Assembly: GCF_003334815.1 (NCBI RefSeq)
Contig: NZ_QOWO01000023.1
Reading direction: 5' to 3' (one strand)
DNA: 64,000 nt
Source: Escherichia coli
GTDB lineage: Bacteria > Pseudomonadota > Gammaproteobacteria > Enterobacterales > Enterobacteriaceae
The first letter of the stretch is position 1, and the number at the start of each line of letters is the position of its first letter. The notes below the pieces were generated by a model. That model was not told where the DNA came from, ran no database searches, and saw nothing but the letters and a program-made list of their open reading frames with translations. Positions 2,179 to 9,698 of the stretch are shown here, one piece after another. Made by a program: the position numbers and the translations under genes.

Positions 2179-3713
2179 GGATGCGGCTCCGTTTTGCTGG
2201 TCACATCGATGGCATCGATACGACGGCTGTTGAACAGATTGAATTTGGTATCTGAACCGTGGCAGCCATCACCAAAGGTAAAGCCGCAGCCATTTTTCTC
2301 CGGGAAGGCTTCCCGTGCCAGTTCACGATGACTACTCGGCACCACAAAGCGATCTTCGTAGTTAGCAATCGCCAGATAACGGTACATCTCCTGTGCCTGG
2401 GCTTCGGTCAGACCGACCTCTTCCAGCGCACGAGTATCAACTTTACCGTCAACGGTTTCAGCACGTTTGTAATGACGCATCGCCAGCATACGTTTCAGTG
2501 CGCGCAGTACCGGTTTGGTATCACCGGCGGTCAGCAGATTCGCCAGATACTGTACCGGAATACGCAGGCTTTCGACGTCTGGCAGAATGCCGTTGCTACC
2601 CAGCTCACCCGCGTCTGCTGCAGACTGAATCGGAGACAGAGGCGGCACGTACCAGACCATCGGCAGTGTGCGATATTCCGGATGCAGCGGCAGCGCCAGT
2701 TTCCATTCCATTGCCATTTTATAAACCGGCGACTGCTGTGCGGCTTCAATAACGCTCAGCGGAATACCGTCTTTAATCGCCTGCTCGATGACTTTCGGAT
2801 CGTTCGGATCGAGGAACACGTCCAGCTGACGCTGGTAAAGATCTTTCTCGTTCTCGGTGCTGGCTGCACGTTCAATAGCGTCGGCATCGTACAACAGCAC
2901 GCCAAGATAACGGATACGACCGACACAGGTTTCTGAGCACACGGTCGGCTGACCCGCTTCAATACGCGGATAGCAGAAGATGCACTTCTCAGACTTACCG
3001 CTCTTCCAGTTGAAGTAGATTTTTTTGTACGGGCATCCAGTGATGCACATACGCCAGCCACGGCATTTATCCTGGTCGATCAGGACGATGCCATCTTCTT
3101 CACGCTTGTAAATCGCACCGCTCGGGCAGGTCGCCACACATGCCGGGTTCAGGCAGTGTTCGCACAGGCGCGGCAAATACATCATGAAGGTGTTTTCGAA
3201 CTGGCTATACATCGCCTTCTGGATGTTGTCGAAGTTCTTGTCTTTCGCCAGTTTGTCAAACTCACCGCCCAGGTCATCTTCCCAGTTCGGCCCTTTTTCG
3301 ATTTTCGCCATCCGTTCCCCGGTAATCAGCGAACGCGGACGGGCAATCGGCTGCGATTTGCTGCCTTCCGGCGCGGTATGCAGGTTCTGATAGTCAAAAT
3401 CGAACGGCTCGTAATAATCGTCGATCCCCGGCAGATGCGGGTTAGCGAAGATTTTACCCAGCAGCATGGCACGGTTACCCATGCGCGGCTGCAGTTTGCC
3501 GTTGATTTTACGGATCCAGCCGCCTTTGTATTTTTCCTGGTTTTCCCAGTCAGTCGGGAAGCCCTGGCCCGGCTTGGTTTCCACGTTGTTGAACCACGCA
3601 TATTCCACGCCTTCACGGCTGGTCCAGACGTTTTTACAGGTAACTGAACAGGTGTGGCAGCCGATGCACTTATCGAGATTCAGCACCATGCCGACTTGTG
3701 AACGAATTTTCAT
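2175..3713 (-). CDS. narH: Respiratory nitrate reductase 1 beta subunit (iron-sulfur)
   Basis: 512-aa ORF with four Cys-cluster ferredoxin motifs (CIGCHTCSVTC, CEHCLNPACVATCPSG and others); length matches NarH. Confidence 0.95.
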   Translation of the reverse strand: MKIRSQVGMVLNLDKCIGCHTCSVTCKNVWTSREGVEYAWFNNVETKPGQGFPTDWENQEKYKGGWIRKINGKLQPRMGNRAMLLGKIFANPHLPGIDDYYEPFDFDYQNLHTAPEGSKSQPIARPRSLITGERMAKIEKGPNWEDDLGGEFDKLAKDKNFDNIQKAMYSQFENTFMMYLPRLCEHCLNPACVATCPSGAIYKREEDGIVLIDQDKCRGWRMCITGCPYKKIYFNWKSGKSEKCIFCYPRIEAGQPTVCSETCVGRIRYLGVLLYDADAIERAASTENEKDLYQRQLDVFLDPNDPKVIEQAIKDGIPLSVIEAAQQSPVYKMAMEWKLALPLHPEYRTLPMVWYVPPLSPIQSAADAGELGSNGILPDVESLRIPVQYLANLLTAGDTKPVLRALKRMLAMRHYKRAETVDGKVDTRALEEVGLTEAQAQEMYRYLAIANYEDRFVVPSSHRELAREAFPEKNGCGFTFGDGCHGSDTKFNLFNSRRIDAIDVTSKTEPHP

Positions 3714-6700
3714 TTTACGCTCTCCTGTACCTGGTCATTGCCTTCGCCATCTAACCAGTCAATGTTCTTCATCTTACGCACTACAACAAACTCATCGCGG
3801 TTAGAACCTACGGTGCCATAGTAGTTAAAGCCGTATGCCAGATGGGCATAGCCGCCGATCATATGCGTCGGTTTCGGCGTGATACGGGTGACCGAGTTAT
3901 GGATACCACCACGCTGTTGGGTAATTTCCGAACCAGGCAGGTTAACGATACGTTCCTGCGCGTGGTACATCATGGTCATCCCTGCCGGAACACGCTGGCT
4001 GACAACCGCACGGGCAGTCAGAGCACCGTTGCTGTTGAAGACTTCAATCCAGTCGTTATCGGCGATACCCAGATCTTTGGCATCGGCTTCACTCAACCAG
4101 ACCACCGGACCACCGCGACCTAAAGTCAGCATCAGCAGGTTGTCGCTGTAGGTGGAGTGGATACCCCACTTCTGGTGCGGCGTCAGGAAGTTGAGCGCTT
4201 TTTCCTGGTTGCCGTTGGATTTCTGGCCTATCACTTCTTTCACCGAACGGGTGTCGATCGGCGGACGATAAACCAGCAGGCTTTCACCGAAATCACGCAT
4301 CCACTGGTGATCCTGATACAGTTGCTGACGACCAGAGAGCGTACGCCATGGGATCAGCTCGTGAACGTTGGTGTAACCGGCGTTGTAAGAAACGTGTTCA
4401 TCTTCCAGACCAGACCAGGTCGGGCTGGAGATAATTTTGCGCGGCTGTGCCTGAATATCGCGGAAGCGGATCTTCTCGTCTTCTTTATTCAGCGCCAGAT
4501 GCGTATGGTCACGACCGGTAAATTCGCTCAGGGCAGCCCAGGCTTTCACGGCTACCTGACCGTTGGTTTCCGGTGCCAGTGTCAGGATCATCTCTGCCGC
4601 ATCAATTTCGGTGTTCAGCATCGGCTGGCCTTTCGCCGGACCTTCCGCTTTGGTGTAGTTGAGCTTACGCAGCAGATCCATCTCGCTCTGGGTGTTCCAG
4701 GCAATCCCTTTACCGCCATTACCGATTTTCTCCATCAGCGGGCCGATAGAGGTAAAGCGTTCGTAAGTCGCCGGATAATCGCGCTCTACGACCATAATGT
4801 GTGGCGCGGTTTTACCTGGGATCAGGTCGCACTCGCCTTTTTTCCAGTCTTTCACATCCAGCGGCTGCGCCAGTTCAGCGGCAGAGTCATGCTGGATAGG
4901 CAGCGTGACGATGTCGGTTTCTTTACCCAGATGGCCGACGCACACTTCGGAGAATTTCTTCGCGATGGCTTTGTAGATTTCCCAGTCGCTTTTCGCTTCC
5001 CAGGCCGGATCGACCGCCGCAGACAGCGGGTGAATAAACGGATGCATATCCGAAGTATTCATGTCGTCTTTTTCGTACCAGGTCGCCGTCGGCAAAATGA
5101 TGTCGGAATAGAGACAGGTGCTCGACAGACGGAAGTCCAGCGTAACCACCAGATCCAGCTTGCCTTCCAGACCATTGTCCTGCCAGTCCACTTCTTCCGG
5201 CTTCACGCCGCCCTGTTGCCCCAGATCTTTACCCTGGATACCGTGCTCCGTCCCCAGCAGGTACTTGAGCATAAACTCATGACCTTTACCGGAAGAACCG
5301 AGCAGGTTAGAACGCCAGATGAACAGGTTGCGCGGGTGGTTTTTACCGTTTTCTGGTTGTTCTGCCGCAAAACGGATGGAACCCTCTTTCAGGGATTTCA
5401 CCGTATAGTCCACCGGATTCATCCCGGCTTTTTCCGCTTCGCCAGCGATAGTCAGCGGGTTAGTGCCTAACTGCGGTGCAGACGGCAGCCAGCCCATGCG
5501 TTCCGCACGGACGTTAAAGTCGATCAAGTGTCCGGTATAGCGGGATTTGTCCGCCATCGGTGACAGCAACTCTTCCGCCGTGACGGTTTCATAACGCCAC
5601 TGGCTGGAGTGGTTATAGAAATAAGAAGTGCTGTTCATGTGACGCGCCGGACGCTGCCAGTCAAGGGCAAACGCCAGCGGCTGCCAGCCGGTTTGCGGAC
5701 GCAGTTTTTCCTGACCTACATAGTGCGCCCAGCCGCCCCCGCTCTGACCGACACAGCCGCAGAAAATCAGCATGTTGATCAGACCACGATAGTTCATATC
5801 GAGGTGATACCAGTGGTTCAGCCCCGCACCGACGATAATCATCGAACGACCGTGCGTTTTATCAGCGTTATCGGCAAATTCACGGGCGATGCGAATAATC
5901 TGGCTGCGAGAAACGCCGGTAATCTGCTCGGCCCAGGCCGGGGTATAAGCTTTCACATCGTCATAGCTGGTTGCACAGTTAACGTCGTTCAGGCCACGTT
6001 CCAGACCGTAGTTTGCCAGCGTCAGATCATAAACGGTGGTCACCAGGGCGGTGCTGCCATCAGCCAGTTGCAGGCGTTTCACCGGCAGTTTGTGCAGCAG
6101 CACGTTTTCCAGTTCCACTTTGTTGAAGTGTTCCGTGCCGTCGCCACCAAAGTACGGGAAGCCTACCTCAGCGATCTCATCCTGGCTACCCAGCAGGCTC
6201 AGTTGCAGCTCGGTTTCTTCGCCAGTTTTGCCGTCGCGCTGCTCAAGATTCCATTTGCCCTTCTCGCCCCAGCGGAAGCCAATAGAACCGTTCGGCGCAA
6301 CCATTTCGCCATTGGTATTAAAGGCGACAGTTTTCCATTCCGGATTGTTTTCCTGGCCCAGCGCATCAACCAGATCAGCAGCGCGCAGCATACGACCTGC
6401 AGCGTAGTAACCGTCGCGTTCTTCCAGCATCACCAGCATCGGCATGTCGGTGTAGCGACGCACATAGTCGGTGAAATACTGGCTTGGGTTGTCGAGGTGG
6501 AATTCACGCAGCATTACGTGGCCCATCGCCAGCGCCATTGCCGCATCGGTGCCCTGTTTCGGTGCCAGCCACAGATCGCACAGTTTGGCGATTTCAGCGT
6601 AGTCTGGTGTGACGGCAACAGTTTTGGTCCCTTTGTAACGCACTTCAGTAAAGAAGTGAGCATCCGGGGTACGCGTCTGCGGCACGTTTGACCCCCAGGC

Positions 6701-7453
6701 GATGATGTAGCTGGAGTTGTACCAGTCAGCAGATTCCGGTACGTCAGTTTGCTCGCCCCAGGTTTGCGGAGACGCAGGAGGCAAGTCGCAGTACCAGTCG
6801 TAGAAGCTTAAGCAAGTACCGCCAATCAGCGAGAGATAGCGTGCACCCGATGCGTAAGAAACCATCGACATTGCCGGAATTGGCGAGAAACCAGCAACAC
6901 GGTCCGGGCCGTAGTTTTTGATGGTGTAAACGTTAGATGCGGCGATCAGTTCGTTCACCTCCTGCCAGGAAGAACGAACAAATCCACCGCGTCCACGCGC
7001 CTGCTTAAAGCTTTTCGCTTTATCGGCGTCTTCAATGATAGAAGCCCATGCCTCAACCGGATCGCTATGCAGCGCCTTCGCTTCACGCCACATTTTCATC
7101 AGGCGTTTGCGCATCATCGGGTATTTCAGGCGGTTGGCACTATAAAGATACCAGGAGTAGCTGGCACCGCGCGGGCAGCCGCGAGGTTCATGGTTTGGCA
7201 GATCCGGACGGGTACGCGGATAGTCAGTCTGCTGGGTTTCCCAGGTGACCAGACCGTTTTTGACGTAGATTTTCCAGCTGCAGGAGCCGGTGCAGTTTAC
7301 CCCGTGGGTAGAGCGGACGATTTTGTCATGCTGCCAACGCTGGCGATATCCATCCTCCCAGTCACGGTTGGTATTGAGAAGCTGGCCATGCCCATCGGCA
7401 AAGGTTTCACCCTTCTGTTTGAAGTAGCGAAACCGGTCCAGGAATTTACTCAT
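3710..7453 (-). CDS. narG: Respiratory nitrate reductase 1 alpha subunit (molybdopterin catalytic subunit)
   Basis: 1247-aa ORF; N-terminal HGVNCTGSCSWK Fe-S motif and molybdopterin oxidoreductase domains; length matches NarG. Confidence 0.95.
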   Translation of the reverse strand: MSKFLDRFRYFKQKGETFADGHGQLLNTNRDWEDGYRQRWQHDKIVRSTHGVNCTGSCSWKIYVKNGLVTWETQQTDYPRTRPDLPNHEPRGCPRGASYSWYLYSANRLKYPMMRKRLMKMWREAKALHSDPVEAWASIIEDADKAKSFKQARGRGGFVRSSWQEVNELIAASNVYTIKNYGPDRVAGFSPIPAMSMVSYASGARYLSLIGGTCLSFYDWYCDLPPASPQTWGEQTDVPESADWYNSSYIIAWGSNVPQTRTPDAHFFTEVRYKGTKTVAVTPDYAEIAKLCDLWLAPKQGTDAAMALAMGHVMLREFHLDNPSQYFTDYVRRYTDMPMLVMLEERDGYYAAGRMLRAADLVDALGQENNPEWKTVAFNTNGEMVAPNGSIGFRWGEKGKWNLEQRDGKTGEETELQLSLLGSQDEIAEVGFPYFGGDGTEHFNKVELENVLLHKLPVKRLQLADGSTALVTTVYDLTLANYGLERGLNDVNCATSYDDVKAYTPAWAEQITGVSRSQIIRIAREFADNADKTHGRSMIIVGAGLNHWYHLDMNYRGLINMLIFCGCVGQSGGGWAHYVGQEKLRPQTGWQPLAFALDWQRPARHMNSTSYFYNHSSQWRYETVTAEELLSPMADKSRYTGHLIDFNVRAERMGWLPSAPQLGTNPLTIAGEAEKAGMNPVDYTVKSLKEGSIRFAAEQPENGKNHPRNLFIWRSNLLGSSGKGHEFMLKYLLGTEHGIQGKDLGQQGGVKPEEVDWQDNGLEGKLDLVVTLDFRLSSTCLYSDIILPTATWYEKDDMNTSDMHPFIHPLSAAVDPAWEAKSDWEIYKAIAKKFSEVCVGHLGKETDIVTLPIQHDSAAELAQPLDVKDWKKGECDLIPGKTAPHIMVVERDYPATYERFTSIGPLMEKIGNGGKGIAWNTQSEMDLLRKLNYTKAEGPAKGQPMLNTEIDAAEMILTLAPETNGQVAVKAWAALSEFTGRDHTHLALNKEDEKIRFRDIQAQPRKIISSPTWSGLEDEHVSYNAGYTNVHELIPWRTLSGRQQLYQDHQWMRDFGESLLVYRPPIDTRSVKEVIGQKSNGNQEKALNFLTPHQKWGIHSTYSDNLLMLTLGRGGPVVWLSEADAKDLGIADNDWIEVFNSNGALTARAVVSQRVPAGMTMMYHAQERIVNLPGSEITQQRGGIHNSVTRITPKPTHMIGGYAHLAYGFNYYGTVGSNRDEFVVVRKMKNIDWLDGEGNDQVQESVK

Positions 7454-7544
7454 CGGTTTTCTCCTGTGGGAGCCTGTCGGCCCTCTGATAAATCGACATT
7501 GCTAATGTTTAAGGGCAAGGTAACGCTCTGAAACAGCGTGGGAA

Positions 7545-7558
7545 TTGATAACGATCAA
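7545..7558 (-). promoter_or_regulatory. FNR box (TTGAT-N4-ATCAA) of the narG promoter
   Basis: Perfect dyad ttgataacgatcaa about 95 bp upstream of the narG start codon; known FNR-dependent promoter. Confidence 0.75.
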
Positions 7559-7595
7559 GAGTGATGGGGATGAAAAATAAAGTAAATTCCTAAGA

Positions 7596-7602
7596 TACCC
7601 CT
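7596..7602. promoter_or_regulatory. NarL heptamer (TACCCCT) in the narG upstream region
   Basis: Exact match to the NarL heptamer consensus TACYYMT in the AT-rich region upstream of the FNR box. Confidence 0.5.
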
Positions 7603-7796
7603 TTAGGATAATTAACAGCCACCACATAACAGACTGTAAATTAAGACGTTTTATACCTGTAGTTATTTAAACTATTAAGATTTTTATGCAGATGGGTATT
7701 AAGGAGTATTCCCCATGGGTAACATATTAATGGCTCTTAATGAAATCCGGCGAAATAAACCATATAACATTAGTATGTTGTAACTAAATGACGCAT

Positions 7797-7822
7797 AAAA
7801 AAAGCGCGACATCATGCCGCGC
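7797..7822 (-). terminator. Rho-independent terminator downstream of narK
   Basis: Minus-strand gcgcg-(9 nt)-cgcgc hairpin followed by a 7-T run, about 150 nt after the narK stop. Confidence 0.7.
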
Positions 7823-7968
7823 AAAGGATAATCAAATATTTTACTCTATATAATTCGGTTTACAGGAAGGCGGCAAGTGAATGAATCCCAGGAGCTTACT
7901 AAAGTAAGTGACTGGGGTGAATGAACGCAGCCGCAGCACATGTAACCCGAAGTATGACGAGTAACGGT

Positions 7969-9360
7969 TTATTTTTTAGAATGCCGACCATATACCGCCC
8001 AGGTAATCACTACGCAGGCGATATAGAAAATCAAAAATACCTTCATTGCGCCGACTGGCGAACCCGTTAATGCCAGCGAGCTACCAAACGCTTTCGGGAT
8101 AAAGAAGCCACCAATCGCGCCAATCGCAGAGATGAAACCCAGCGCCGCCGCCGTGTCGGTTGCCGCTTCACGCATCGCACGTTCGTCAGAACCCCCTTCT
8201 GCTTTCACGCGATCCATTGTCAGTTTACGGAAGATCACTGAAATCATCTGGAAAGTGGAACCACTACCCAGCCCAGCTGTCAGGAACAGCGCCAGGAAGA
8301 CCGCGAAGAACGCCATGAAGCTTCCGCCCTGCCCGTCAGTCGGTAAGGTCAGGAACAGCAGGCCGCTGAAAATCGCCATCAGAATAAAGTTCACCAGCGT
8401 GACACGAGTTCCGCCCAGACGGTCAGATAATGCACCACCTGCAGAACGCGCCAGCGCACCAATAAACGGCCCGAAGAAAGCGTATTGCAGAATCTGAACA
8501 TCCGGGAACTGCGTTTTTGACAGCATTGCAAAGCCCGCGGAGAAGCCGATGAAGGAGCCGAAGGTTGCCAGATACAGCAGGCTCATAATCCACAGATGAC
8601 CCCGTTTGAGTACCGGCAACTGCTCCTTGATGGAGGCTTTCGAGGTAGCAAGATCGTTCATGCCAAACCACGCCGCAATGGTGAAGATGGCAAGGAACGG
8701 CACCCATATCCAGGACGCATTCGCCAGATACAGCTCAGTCCCATCCGGCTGTTTGACGCCCTGGCTACCAAATACTGCGAAAATCGACAGTGATACCACC
8801 AGCGGAGCAACCAACTGCATGACGCTGACGCCCATGTTTCCCAGACCACCATTCAGACCCAGCGCGCCACCCTGCTTCTGTTTCGGAAAGAAGAAGCTGA
8901 TGTTTGCCATACTGGATGCGAAGTTCGCGCCAGCAAAGCCGCATAGCAGAGAGATGATGATGAAGACGCTATAAGGCGTGGAGGTATCCTGCACGGCAAA
9001 ACCCAGCCAGACGCAAGGAATAATCAGAATACCGGTGCTGAACGCCGTCCAGCGACGACCACCGAAGATAGGAACCATAAAGGAGTATGGAACACGTAAT
9101 AACGCGCCAGAAACCGAAGGCAGCGCAGTCAACATAAATAGCTGATCGGTCGTAAAATTAAAGCCGACTTTCGGTAGGTTCACCGCAACAGCGCTGAACA
9201 ACATCCATACGCAAAACGCCAGCAGCAGACAGGGAACGGAAATCCACAGGTTGCGGCTGGCAATACGTTGACCGCGTTGTTGCCAGAACGCAGGATCTTC
9301 CGGTCGCCAATCTGTAATGACAGCTCCAGTAGCCCTTTCGGGGGCGGATGAGTGACTCAT
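7969..9360 (-). CDS. narK: Nitrate/nitrite antiporter (major facilitator superfamily)
   Basis: Polytopic membrane ORF recognised as NarK; ATG at 9360 preceded by GAGGTG ribosome-binding site gives the 463-aa product (ORF track starts 2 codons upstream at GTG). Confidence 0.93.
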   Translation of the reverse strand: MSHSSAPERATGAVITDWRPEDPAFWQQRGQRIASRNLWISVPCLLLAFCVWMLFSAVAVNLPKVGFNFTTDQLFMLTALPSVSGALLRVPYSFMVPIFGGRRWTAFSTGILIIPCVWLGFAVQDTSTPYSVFIIISLLCGFAGANFASSMANISFFFPKQKQGGALGLNGGLGNMGVSVMQLVAPLVVSLSIFAVFGSQGVKQPDGTELYLANASWIWVPFLAIFTIAAWFGMNDLATSKASIKEQLPVLKRGHLWIMSLLYLATFGSFIGFSAGFAMLSKTQFPDVQILQYAFFGPFIGALARSAGGALSDRLGGTRVTLVNFILMAIFSGLLFLTLPTDGQGGSFMAFFAVFLALFLTAGLGSGSTFQMISVIFRKLTMDRVKAEGGSDERAMREAATDTAAALGFISAIGAIGGFFIPKAFGSSLALTGSPVGAMKVFLIFYIACVVITWAVYGRHSKK

Positions 9361-9419
9361 AGACACCTCTGATACTCGTTTCGATGTCTGCCACCTTAGT
9401 GTCTGTAGCTAAAGGCAAT

Positions 9420-9433
9420 TTGATGTAAATCAA
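9420..9433. promoter_or_regulatory. FNR box (TTGAT-N4-ATCAA) in the narK / narX divergent control region
   Basis: Perfect dyad ttgatgtaaatcaa about 60 bp upstream of narK; a second near-consensus site ttgatatttatcat lies at 9458-9471. Confidence 0.7.
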
Positions 9434-9698
9434 ACGATAAGATAACTTTATCTATCATTGATATTTATCATTACCCATAGTGAGTACAGTGACTTCATAA
9501 AAATTATGAGATTTTTCACGGTGCTGTAAAATCCCTACCCTTACCGATGTAAAGCGACTAACCACACGGCAAATAAGGAGTAACTCTTTCCGGGTATGGG
9601 TATACTTCAGCCAATAGCCGAGAATACTGCCATTCCAGAATGTATCGTCACATTCATTAAGGTTATTGCTCATTTAAAGCCTGAAGGAAGAGGTTTAC

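Follow-up and report, generated by a model that had tools for sequence, protein, structure and literature searches.

Regulatory sites and the small RNA NarS in the narK-narG spacer of a K-12-like Escherichia coli

The Escherichia coli genes narG (3710-7453) and narK (7969-9360, stop codon at 7969-7971) are both encoded by the minus strand, and the ATG of narG at 7453 is separated from the narK stop codon by a spacer of 515 bp (7454-7968). The question raised by this locus is what such a long stretch carries and how much of it serves the control of narG. Coordinates are those of the window, the whole 64-kb (64,000 nucleotides) stretch of DNA that was analysed, in which narX (9699-11495) and narL (11488-12138) are found on the plus strand. 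The spacer had been presented as 515 bp of AT-rich DNA and its composition bears this out, with 39.4% G+C against 50.5% for the window as a whole; in the promoter part, 7510-7796, the G+C content is 34.5%. Small open reading frames of the spacer (25-41 amino acids) were dismissed as unsupported; K-12 has no annotation for them.

Over 551 bp that include the complete spacer (7440-7990) the identity to E. coli K-12 MG1655, which has the opposite orientation, is 100%; the K-12 coordinate is 1287317 minus the window coordinate. Differences from MG1655 in three longer stretches amount to 1 of 6501, 2 of 2501 and 9 of 2401 bases, and such near-identity indicates a K-12-like E. coli as the source of the window. 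The RefSeq annotation of K-12 at this locus features narK, narS and narG. Region 7454-7968 is almost certainly the known K-12-type narK-narG intergenic region, combining the promoter of narGHJI with the narK 3' untranslated region (UTR) that encodes the small RNA NarS. This control region of the nitrate reductase operon, with its sites for FNR, NarL and IHF, has been studied in depth and serves as a model system for co-dependent activation by these three proteins, and its substance is already known, which leaves little discovery value. The preliminary description had recognised the narG control region, the FNR box, one NarL heptamer and the narK terminator, while it labelled the heptamer as distant and left out the distal NarL heptamers, the site of IHF, NarS and an ERIC repeat. 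The present analysis adds a corrected map of the sites, a site spacing that is kept within 2 bp across Enterobacterales, and the assignment of a third of the "control region" to a small RNA gene with a polymorphic ERIC element. Mildly new are the constancy of spacing among species, the apparent decay, in Escherichia, of the NarL inverted repeat at -93.5, and the uneven distribution among E. coli genomes of the ERIC element in the NarS precursor.

The narG promoter is organised around an FNR box, TTGATAACGATCAA / TTGATCGTTATCAA at 7545-7558 (no strand assigned), which is an exact TTGAT-N4-ATCAA motif with 10 of 10 specified positions matched. The claim of a perfect FNR dyad about 95 bp upstream of narG was correct, the distance measured from the centre of the box to the ATG being 98 bp. 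Only two exact matches to the consensus are present in the 64-kb window, where 0.16 are expected, and the other one belongs to the narK promoter. The table of FNR sites from a genome-wide ChIP study (Myers 2013) places the narGHJI site at -41.5 (PMC3688515), the position of class II activators. If the centre of the box is set to this value the narG transcript would start at A7510 (or A7509), and all positions given below for narG are relative to this putative start. The predicted 5' untranslated leader would then cover 7454-7510 on the minus strand (~57 nt), with a Shine-Dalgarno sequence AGGAG just upstream of the ATG. The -10 hexamer is TACCTT at 7517-7522 on the minus strand (-12 to -7). 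A generic scan for sigma-70 promoters did not call the narG promoter, as expected because the promoter is activator-dependent and has no -35 element.

The conservation of these elements was assessed by searching a single genome of each species with NarG residues 1-200, which yielded 27 Enterobacterales narG orthologue loci (L005-L031). The promoter sequences, 28 with the window included, were aligned without gaps using the FNR box as anchor, and every offset between -245 and -55 was scanned. Sites were scored by consensus matching combined with shuffles and with the offset scan, in place of position-weight matrices. The FNR box lies ~93 to 145 bp upstream of narG in all 27 orthologue loci; it is exact in 25 of the 28 sequences and has one mismatch in the other three. 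Positions T-12, A-11 and T-7 of the -10 hexamer are kept in at least 90% of the 28 FNR-box-anchored sequences and an 'aA' at +1/+2 is conserved across the 28 species. The conserved -10 lies 29 bp from the centre of the FNR box, a distance consistent with FNR at -41.5 and with the proposed start site.

NarL is the second regulator whose sites can be mapped in the spacer. The heptamer TACCCCT reported at 7596-7602, about 50 bp beyond the FNR box, is indeed present, on the plus strand and thus inverted relative to narG, at 47.5 bp from the centre of the FNR box. Its description as distant did not hold; the heptamer is centred at -89, the position of the proximal site. In DNase I footprinting, phosphorylated NarL (NarL-P) occupies a high-affinity, promoter-proximal region centred at -89 and a second one of lower affinity centred at -195, and induction of narG needs both regions together with FNR and IHF (PMC4549865). 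The remote NarL sites required by the DNA-bending model are three heptamers of the minus strand that are absent from the preliminary description: TACCCAT at 7692-7698 (-185), TACTCCT at 7702-7708 (-195) and TACCCAT at 7715-7721 (-208). The omission of these distal heptamers, and of IHF, is probably due to a reading of the plus strand, where the heptamers appear as ATGGGTA and AGGAGTA. Together the four TACYYMT positions (-89, -185, -195 and -208) match the published footprints at -89 and -195.

The lowest mean mismatch to a forward TACYYMT heptamer over the 28 sequences is reached at -195, followed by -98 and -185. The -195 heptamer is found with one mismatch at most in 28 of 28 sequences (exact in 20); its distance from the FNR box shifts by no more than 2 bp either way, and it sits precisely at -195 in 19 of them. 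The stretches that separate the protein sites show no sequence conservation across the 28 species. This fixed spacing, with fixed best offsets, supports a loop of fixed geometry bent by IHF.

The offset at -98 found in the same scan corresponds in the window to a degenerate heptamer, TTATCCT, at 7605-7611 on the minus strand (-101 to -95). With the -89 heptamer it probably makes up what is left of a 7-2-7 inverted repeat whose centre lies at -93.5. When the 7-2-7 pattern is slid along the 28 sequences its best position is -101 to -86, that is the same centre of -93.5, where the mean is 3.0 mismatches, compared with 8.8 +/- 0.95 for the full set of offsets. NarL can regulate without a 7-2-7 pair. 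In E. coli, where the site reads TTATCCT-AA-AGGGGTA, there are two mismatches to the high-affinity 7-2-7 pattern, both in the left half. Among loci L007-L031 most genera other than Escherichia have a near-perfect 7-2-7 at -101 to -86 (TACCnCT-TT-GGTGGTA, for example TACCGCT-TT-GGTGGTA). The -89 NarL site thus appears to be a palindrome that decayed in Escherichia and was kept in other genera. Decay of the left half in Escherichia fits the published remark that 7-2-7 sites are missing from narG (PMC4549865).

The exact IHF consensus WATCAANNNNTTR is not found in the spacer, and a search of the E. coli sequence alone with two mismatches allowed returned uninformative AT-rich matches. The core was located only by the cross-species offset scan, in which WATCAANNNNTTR fits best at -129 to -117 with a mean of 2.54 mismatches versus 5.88 +/- 0.75 (28 species). 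A core with one mismatch at most lies within 3 bp of this position on either side in 14 of the 28 sequences, 4 being exact and 10 having one mismatch, as in AATCAATAAATTG. In E. coli the predicted element is TTACAGTCTGTTA at 7627-7639 on the minus strand, centred at -123, and differs from the consensus at 3 of 9 specified positions, a poor match; several genera have a consensus (perfect) core at -123. The placement of IHF at about -123 in E. coli is therefore a candidate one, based on conservation among species and on a footprint taken to span about -110 to -140 at narG. The requirement of IHF for narG induction is known from the literature (PMC4549865, PMC3688515).

The part of the spacer closest to narK has a different content. 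The intrinsic terminator of narK, GCGCGGCAUGAUGUCGCGC followed by U7, occupies 7797-7822 on the minus strand as judged from a terminator scan, RNA folding and the end of narS at 7797 in RefSeq, and NarS has this terminator as its 3' end as well. Its stem starts at 7822 and ends at 7804, with 8 pairs of which 6 are G-C, and on the minus strand it runs into TTTTTTT, which reaches 7797. A narK terminator hairpin had been placed at the far end of the spacer: the hairpin is canonical, but 147 bp separate it from the narK stop codon upstream, an interval that holds an ERIC repeat and the NarS seed. The K-12 RefSeq lists gene narS (7797-7980, minus strand, 184 nt) under the name 'putative small regulatory RNA NarS'; 12 nt of it (7969-7980) are shared with the end of narK, namely three sense codons and the stop codon. 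About one third of the "control region" is thus narK 3' UTR and small RNA.

RNase E cuts the Hfq-dependent small RNA NarS from the narK mRNA, and NarS represses nirC; it was characterised experimentally in Salmonella, where RNase E processing and Hfq binding were shown, and has RIL-seq support in E. coli (PMC7038943). The seed found here, UUUGAUUAUCCUUU, covers 7823-7836 on the minus strand directly upstream of the hairpin. It is a 14/14 perfect complement of AAAGGATAATCAAA / AAAGGAUAAUCAAA, the nirC sequence that holds the Shine-Dalgarno and the start codon, in agreement with the 14-bp NarS-nirC duplex described by Wang et al. 2020 (PMC7038943). The locus shares with the NarS of that work the terminator hairpin and U tract, the single-stranded seed just upstream and the 14-bp nirC duplex, and differs in length: Salmonella NarS-S has 63 nt while the precursor of the E. 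coli K-12 type is longer owing to an insertion by the stop codon (PMC7038943). The narK 3' UTR (7797-7968) is arranged in the order ERIC repeat, NarS seed and intrinsic terminator, and processing of the narK mRNA by RNase E, as known from the literature, would release the Hfq-dependent NarS for pairing with the ribosome-binding site of nirC. Among the 27 narG loci, an exact 13-mer of the seed is found in Escherichia loci only. A scan of 7000-10200 with Rfam (E <= 1) returned no NarS family, and an Rfam match to a lncRNA in the same scan was rejected as spurious.

The insertion in the K-12 narK 3' region was noted by Wang et al., who gave it as 170 nt and left it unexplained (PMC7038943). It is identified here as an ERIC/IRU repeat that is polymorphic within E. 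coli. The element is an imperfect palindrome of ~127 bp at about 7841-7967 (no strand assigned), starting one base after the narK stop codon and contained in the NarS precursor. At 7902-7923, 20 of 22 positions agree with the ERIC2 primer, and the element folds as a long hairpin (z = -4.6), while a match of the element to the Rfam family V_AS5 is sub-threshold, with 30.9 bits against a gathering score of 96. All 5426 complete E. coli genomes carry the ERIC family, at 2 to 16 places per genome (median 10). The narK copy is present in 2454 of the 5426 (~45%) and missing from ~55%, for instance from strain M19. It does not differ in kind from known ERIC/IRU elements, with which it shares the length of ~127 bp, the imperfect palindrome, an intergenic location within a transcribed 3' UTR, about 10 copies per genome and presence/absence polymorphism. 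The feature of its own is the position inside a small RNA precursor.

The composite nature of the spacer invites a reading in which its length and AT-richness are mainly non-regulatory, accounted for by a mobile repeat, the narK 3' UTR and AT-rich filler of the H-NS type. About one third of the spacer (7797-7968) does consist of narK 3' UTR, NarS and an ERIC element that more than half of E. coli genomes lack, and the DNA between the protein sites has no conserved sequence. The promoter proper (7510-7721), however, spans more than 200 bp in which sites are held at fixed distances in 28 species, which filler would not keep, and the -195 region is needed for induction (PMC4549865), so that this account of the spacer is extremely improbable. 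The hairpin at 7797-7822 could likewise be seen as a mere terminator that insulates narG from narK read-through and has no further role. It has canonical features of intrinsic terminators and stands just upstream of the narG upstream activating region, but the 14 nt that directly precede it are the perfect complement of the nirC ribosome-binding site, narS is annotated at this place in the K-12 RefSeq, and NarS has been studied by experiments in Salmonella and RIL-seq in E. coli (PMC7038943). A role limited to termination is very unlikely, and the terminator and small RNA roles can coexist.

It can also be argued that TACCCCT at 7596-7602 matches by chance and has no NarL function, leaving the FNR box as the single meaningful site. 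TACYYMT occurs 53 times in the 64-kb window, which amounts to 0.43 expected occurrences per 515 bp and a probability of 0.35-0.51 of finding at least one in such a length. A single TACYYMT heptamer carries almost no statistical weight by sequence alone. The presence of four in the spacer is far less probable, with P(>=4) of ~0.001 when computed from the density in the window and 0.009 when the spacer is shuffled, and only 1.3% of 515-bp sliding windows reach at least four. Against a chance match, TACCCCT falls on the high-affinity NarL-P footprint published for -89, and footprinting or point mutation of the heptamer bearing on nitrate induction is already on record in the literature (PMC4549865). 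In the unbiased scan the best offset for an inverted heptamer over the 28 species is exactly -92 to -86, that is -89, and the GGTA core at this offset is kept in at least 90% of them. The probability that the heptamer is fortuitous is practically negligible.

The reading retained is that of a narGHJI promoter (~7510-7721, minus strand) in which FNR and NarL act together with the help of IHF. FNR is active only without oxygen and, as a class II activator, contacts RNA polymerase; nitrate is sensed by NarX, which phosphorylates NarL. The promoter would be FNR-dependent of class II type, with an FNR dimer at -41.5 beside the weak -10 hexamer TACCTT. Induction by nitrate would require phospho-NarL at the proximal site, composed of the -89 heptamer and its degenerate partner at -98, and with lower affinity at the distal cluster (-185, -195 and -208). 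IHF at ~-123 would bend the AT-rich DNA between the proximal and the distal NarL sites, allowing the distal NarL complex to fold back to the proximal complex of NarL, FNR and RNA polymerase. Such looping geometry is deduced from the arrangement of the sites, while protein binding and the dependence on FNR, NarL and IHF at narG are taken from the literature (PMC4549865, PMC3688515). There is no difference to the K-12 narGHJI promoter, which has the same sequence over the whole spacer and, relative to the putative start, FNR at -41.5 and heptamers at -89, -185, -195 and -208. The K-12 promoter was reportedly studied by Li & DeMoss, by Walker & DeMoss, and in the Stewart and Gunsalus laboratories.

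Two features of the locus might carry functional consequences in E. coli, although the combined proposal is rather doubtful. The ERIC insertion may alter the stability of the narK mRNA or the processing by RNase E and yield of NarS, and, separately, the decay of the -89 7-2-7 repeat may have led to a stronger dependence on the distal sites and IHF. If the former were true, E. coli lineages would differ in the post-transcriptional control of nitrite import (nirC); if the latter were, the dependence of E. coli on the distal -195 sites and IHF could be stronger than elsewhere.

The promoter of narK, in the narK-narX divergent region (9361-9698), had been said to have a similar layout with two FNR-like dyads and heptamer repeats, and this is what is found. 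An exact FNR box at 9420-9433 was set to -41.5 (PMC3688515), an FNR-like box with one mismatch lies at 9458-9471 (-79.5), and heptamers at 9472, 9576 and 9596 correspond to -90, -194 and -214. FNR at -41.5, heptamers near -90, -194 and -214 and an AT-rich spacer are features in common with narG, whereas the second FNR-like box at -79.5 is not found at narG. No IHF-like core with one mismatch at most is present in a comparable position of the narK promoter. In the K-12 annotation narK starts at the ATG at 9360, not at the GTG at 9366 given in the mechanical list of open reading frames.

The 14-mer of the narK -79.5 box occurs in identical form elsewhere in the window, as an FNR/CRP-like box TTGATATTTATCAT at 56783-56796 whose centre precedes the ATG of hlyE (56923, plus strand) by 133.5 bp. 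This is presumably the known FNR/CRP site of the hlyE promoter. Apart from the spacer, at least four TACYYMT matches per 515 bp are reached in the window only in the AT-rich hlyE region (56650-57600). These matches are mostly of the TACTTAT type and therefore probably reflect base composition rather than NarL sites.

TACYYMT matches with a period of 535 bp are found at 16857-18149, where they mark three tandem long direct repeats, ldrA-rdlA, ldrB-rdlB and ldrC-rdlC. Tandem Repeats Finder detected nothing between 16 and 19 kb because the 535-bp period exceeds 500 bp. The ldr-rdl loci are type I toxin-antitoxin systems, and the stretch that holds them has the most differences from MG1655 (9 in 2401 bases).
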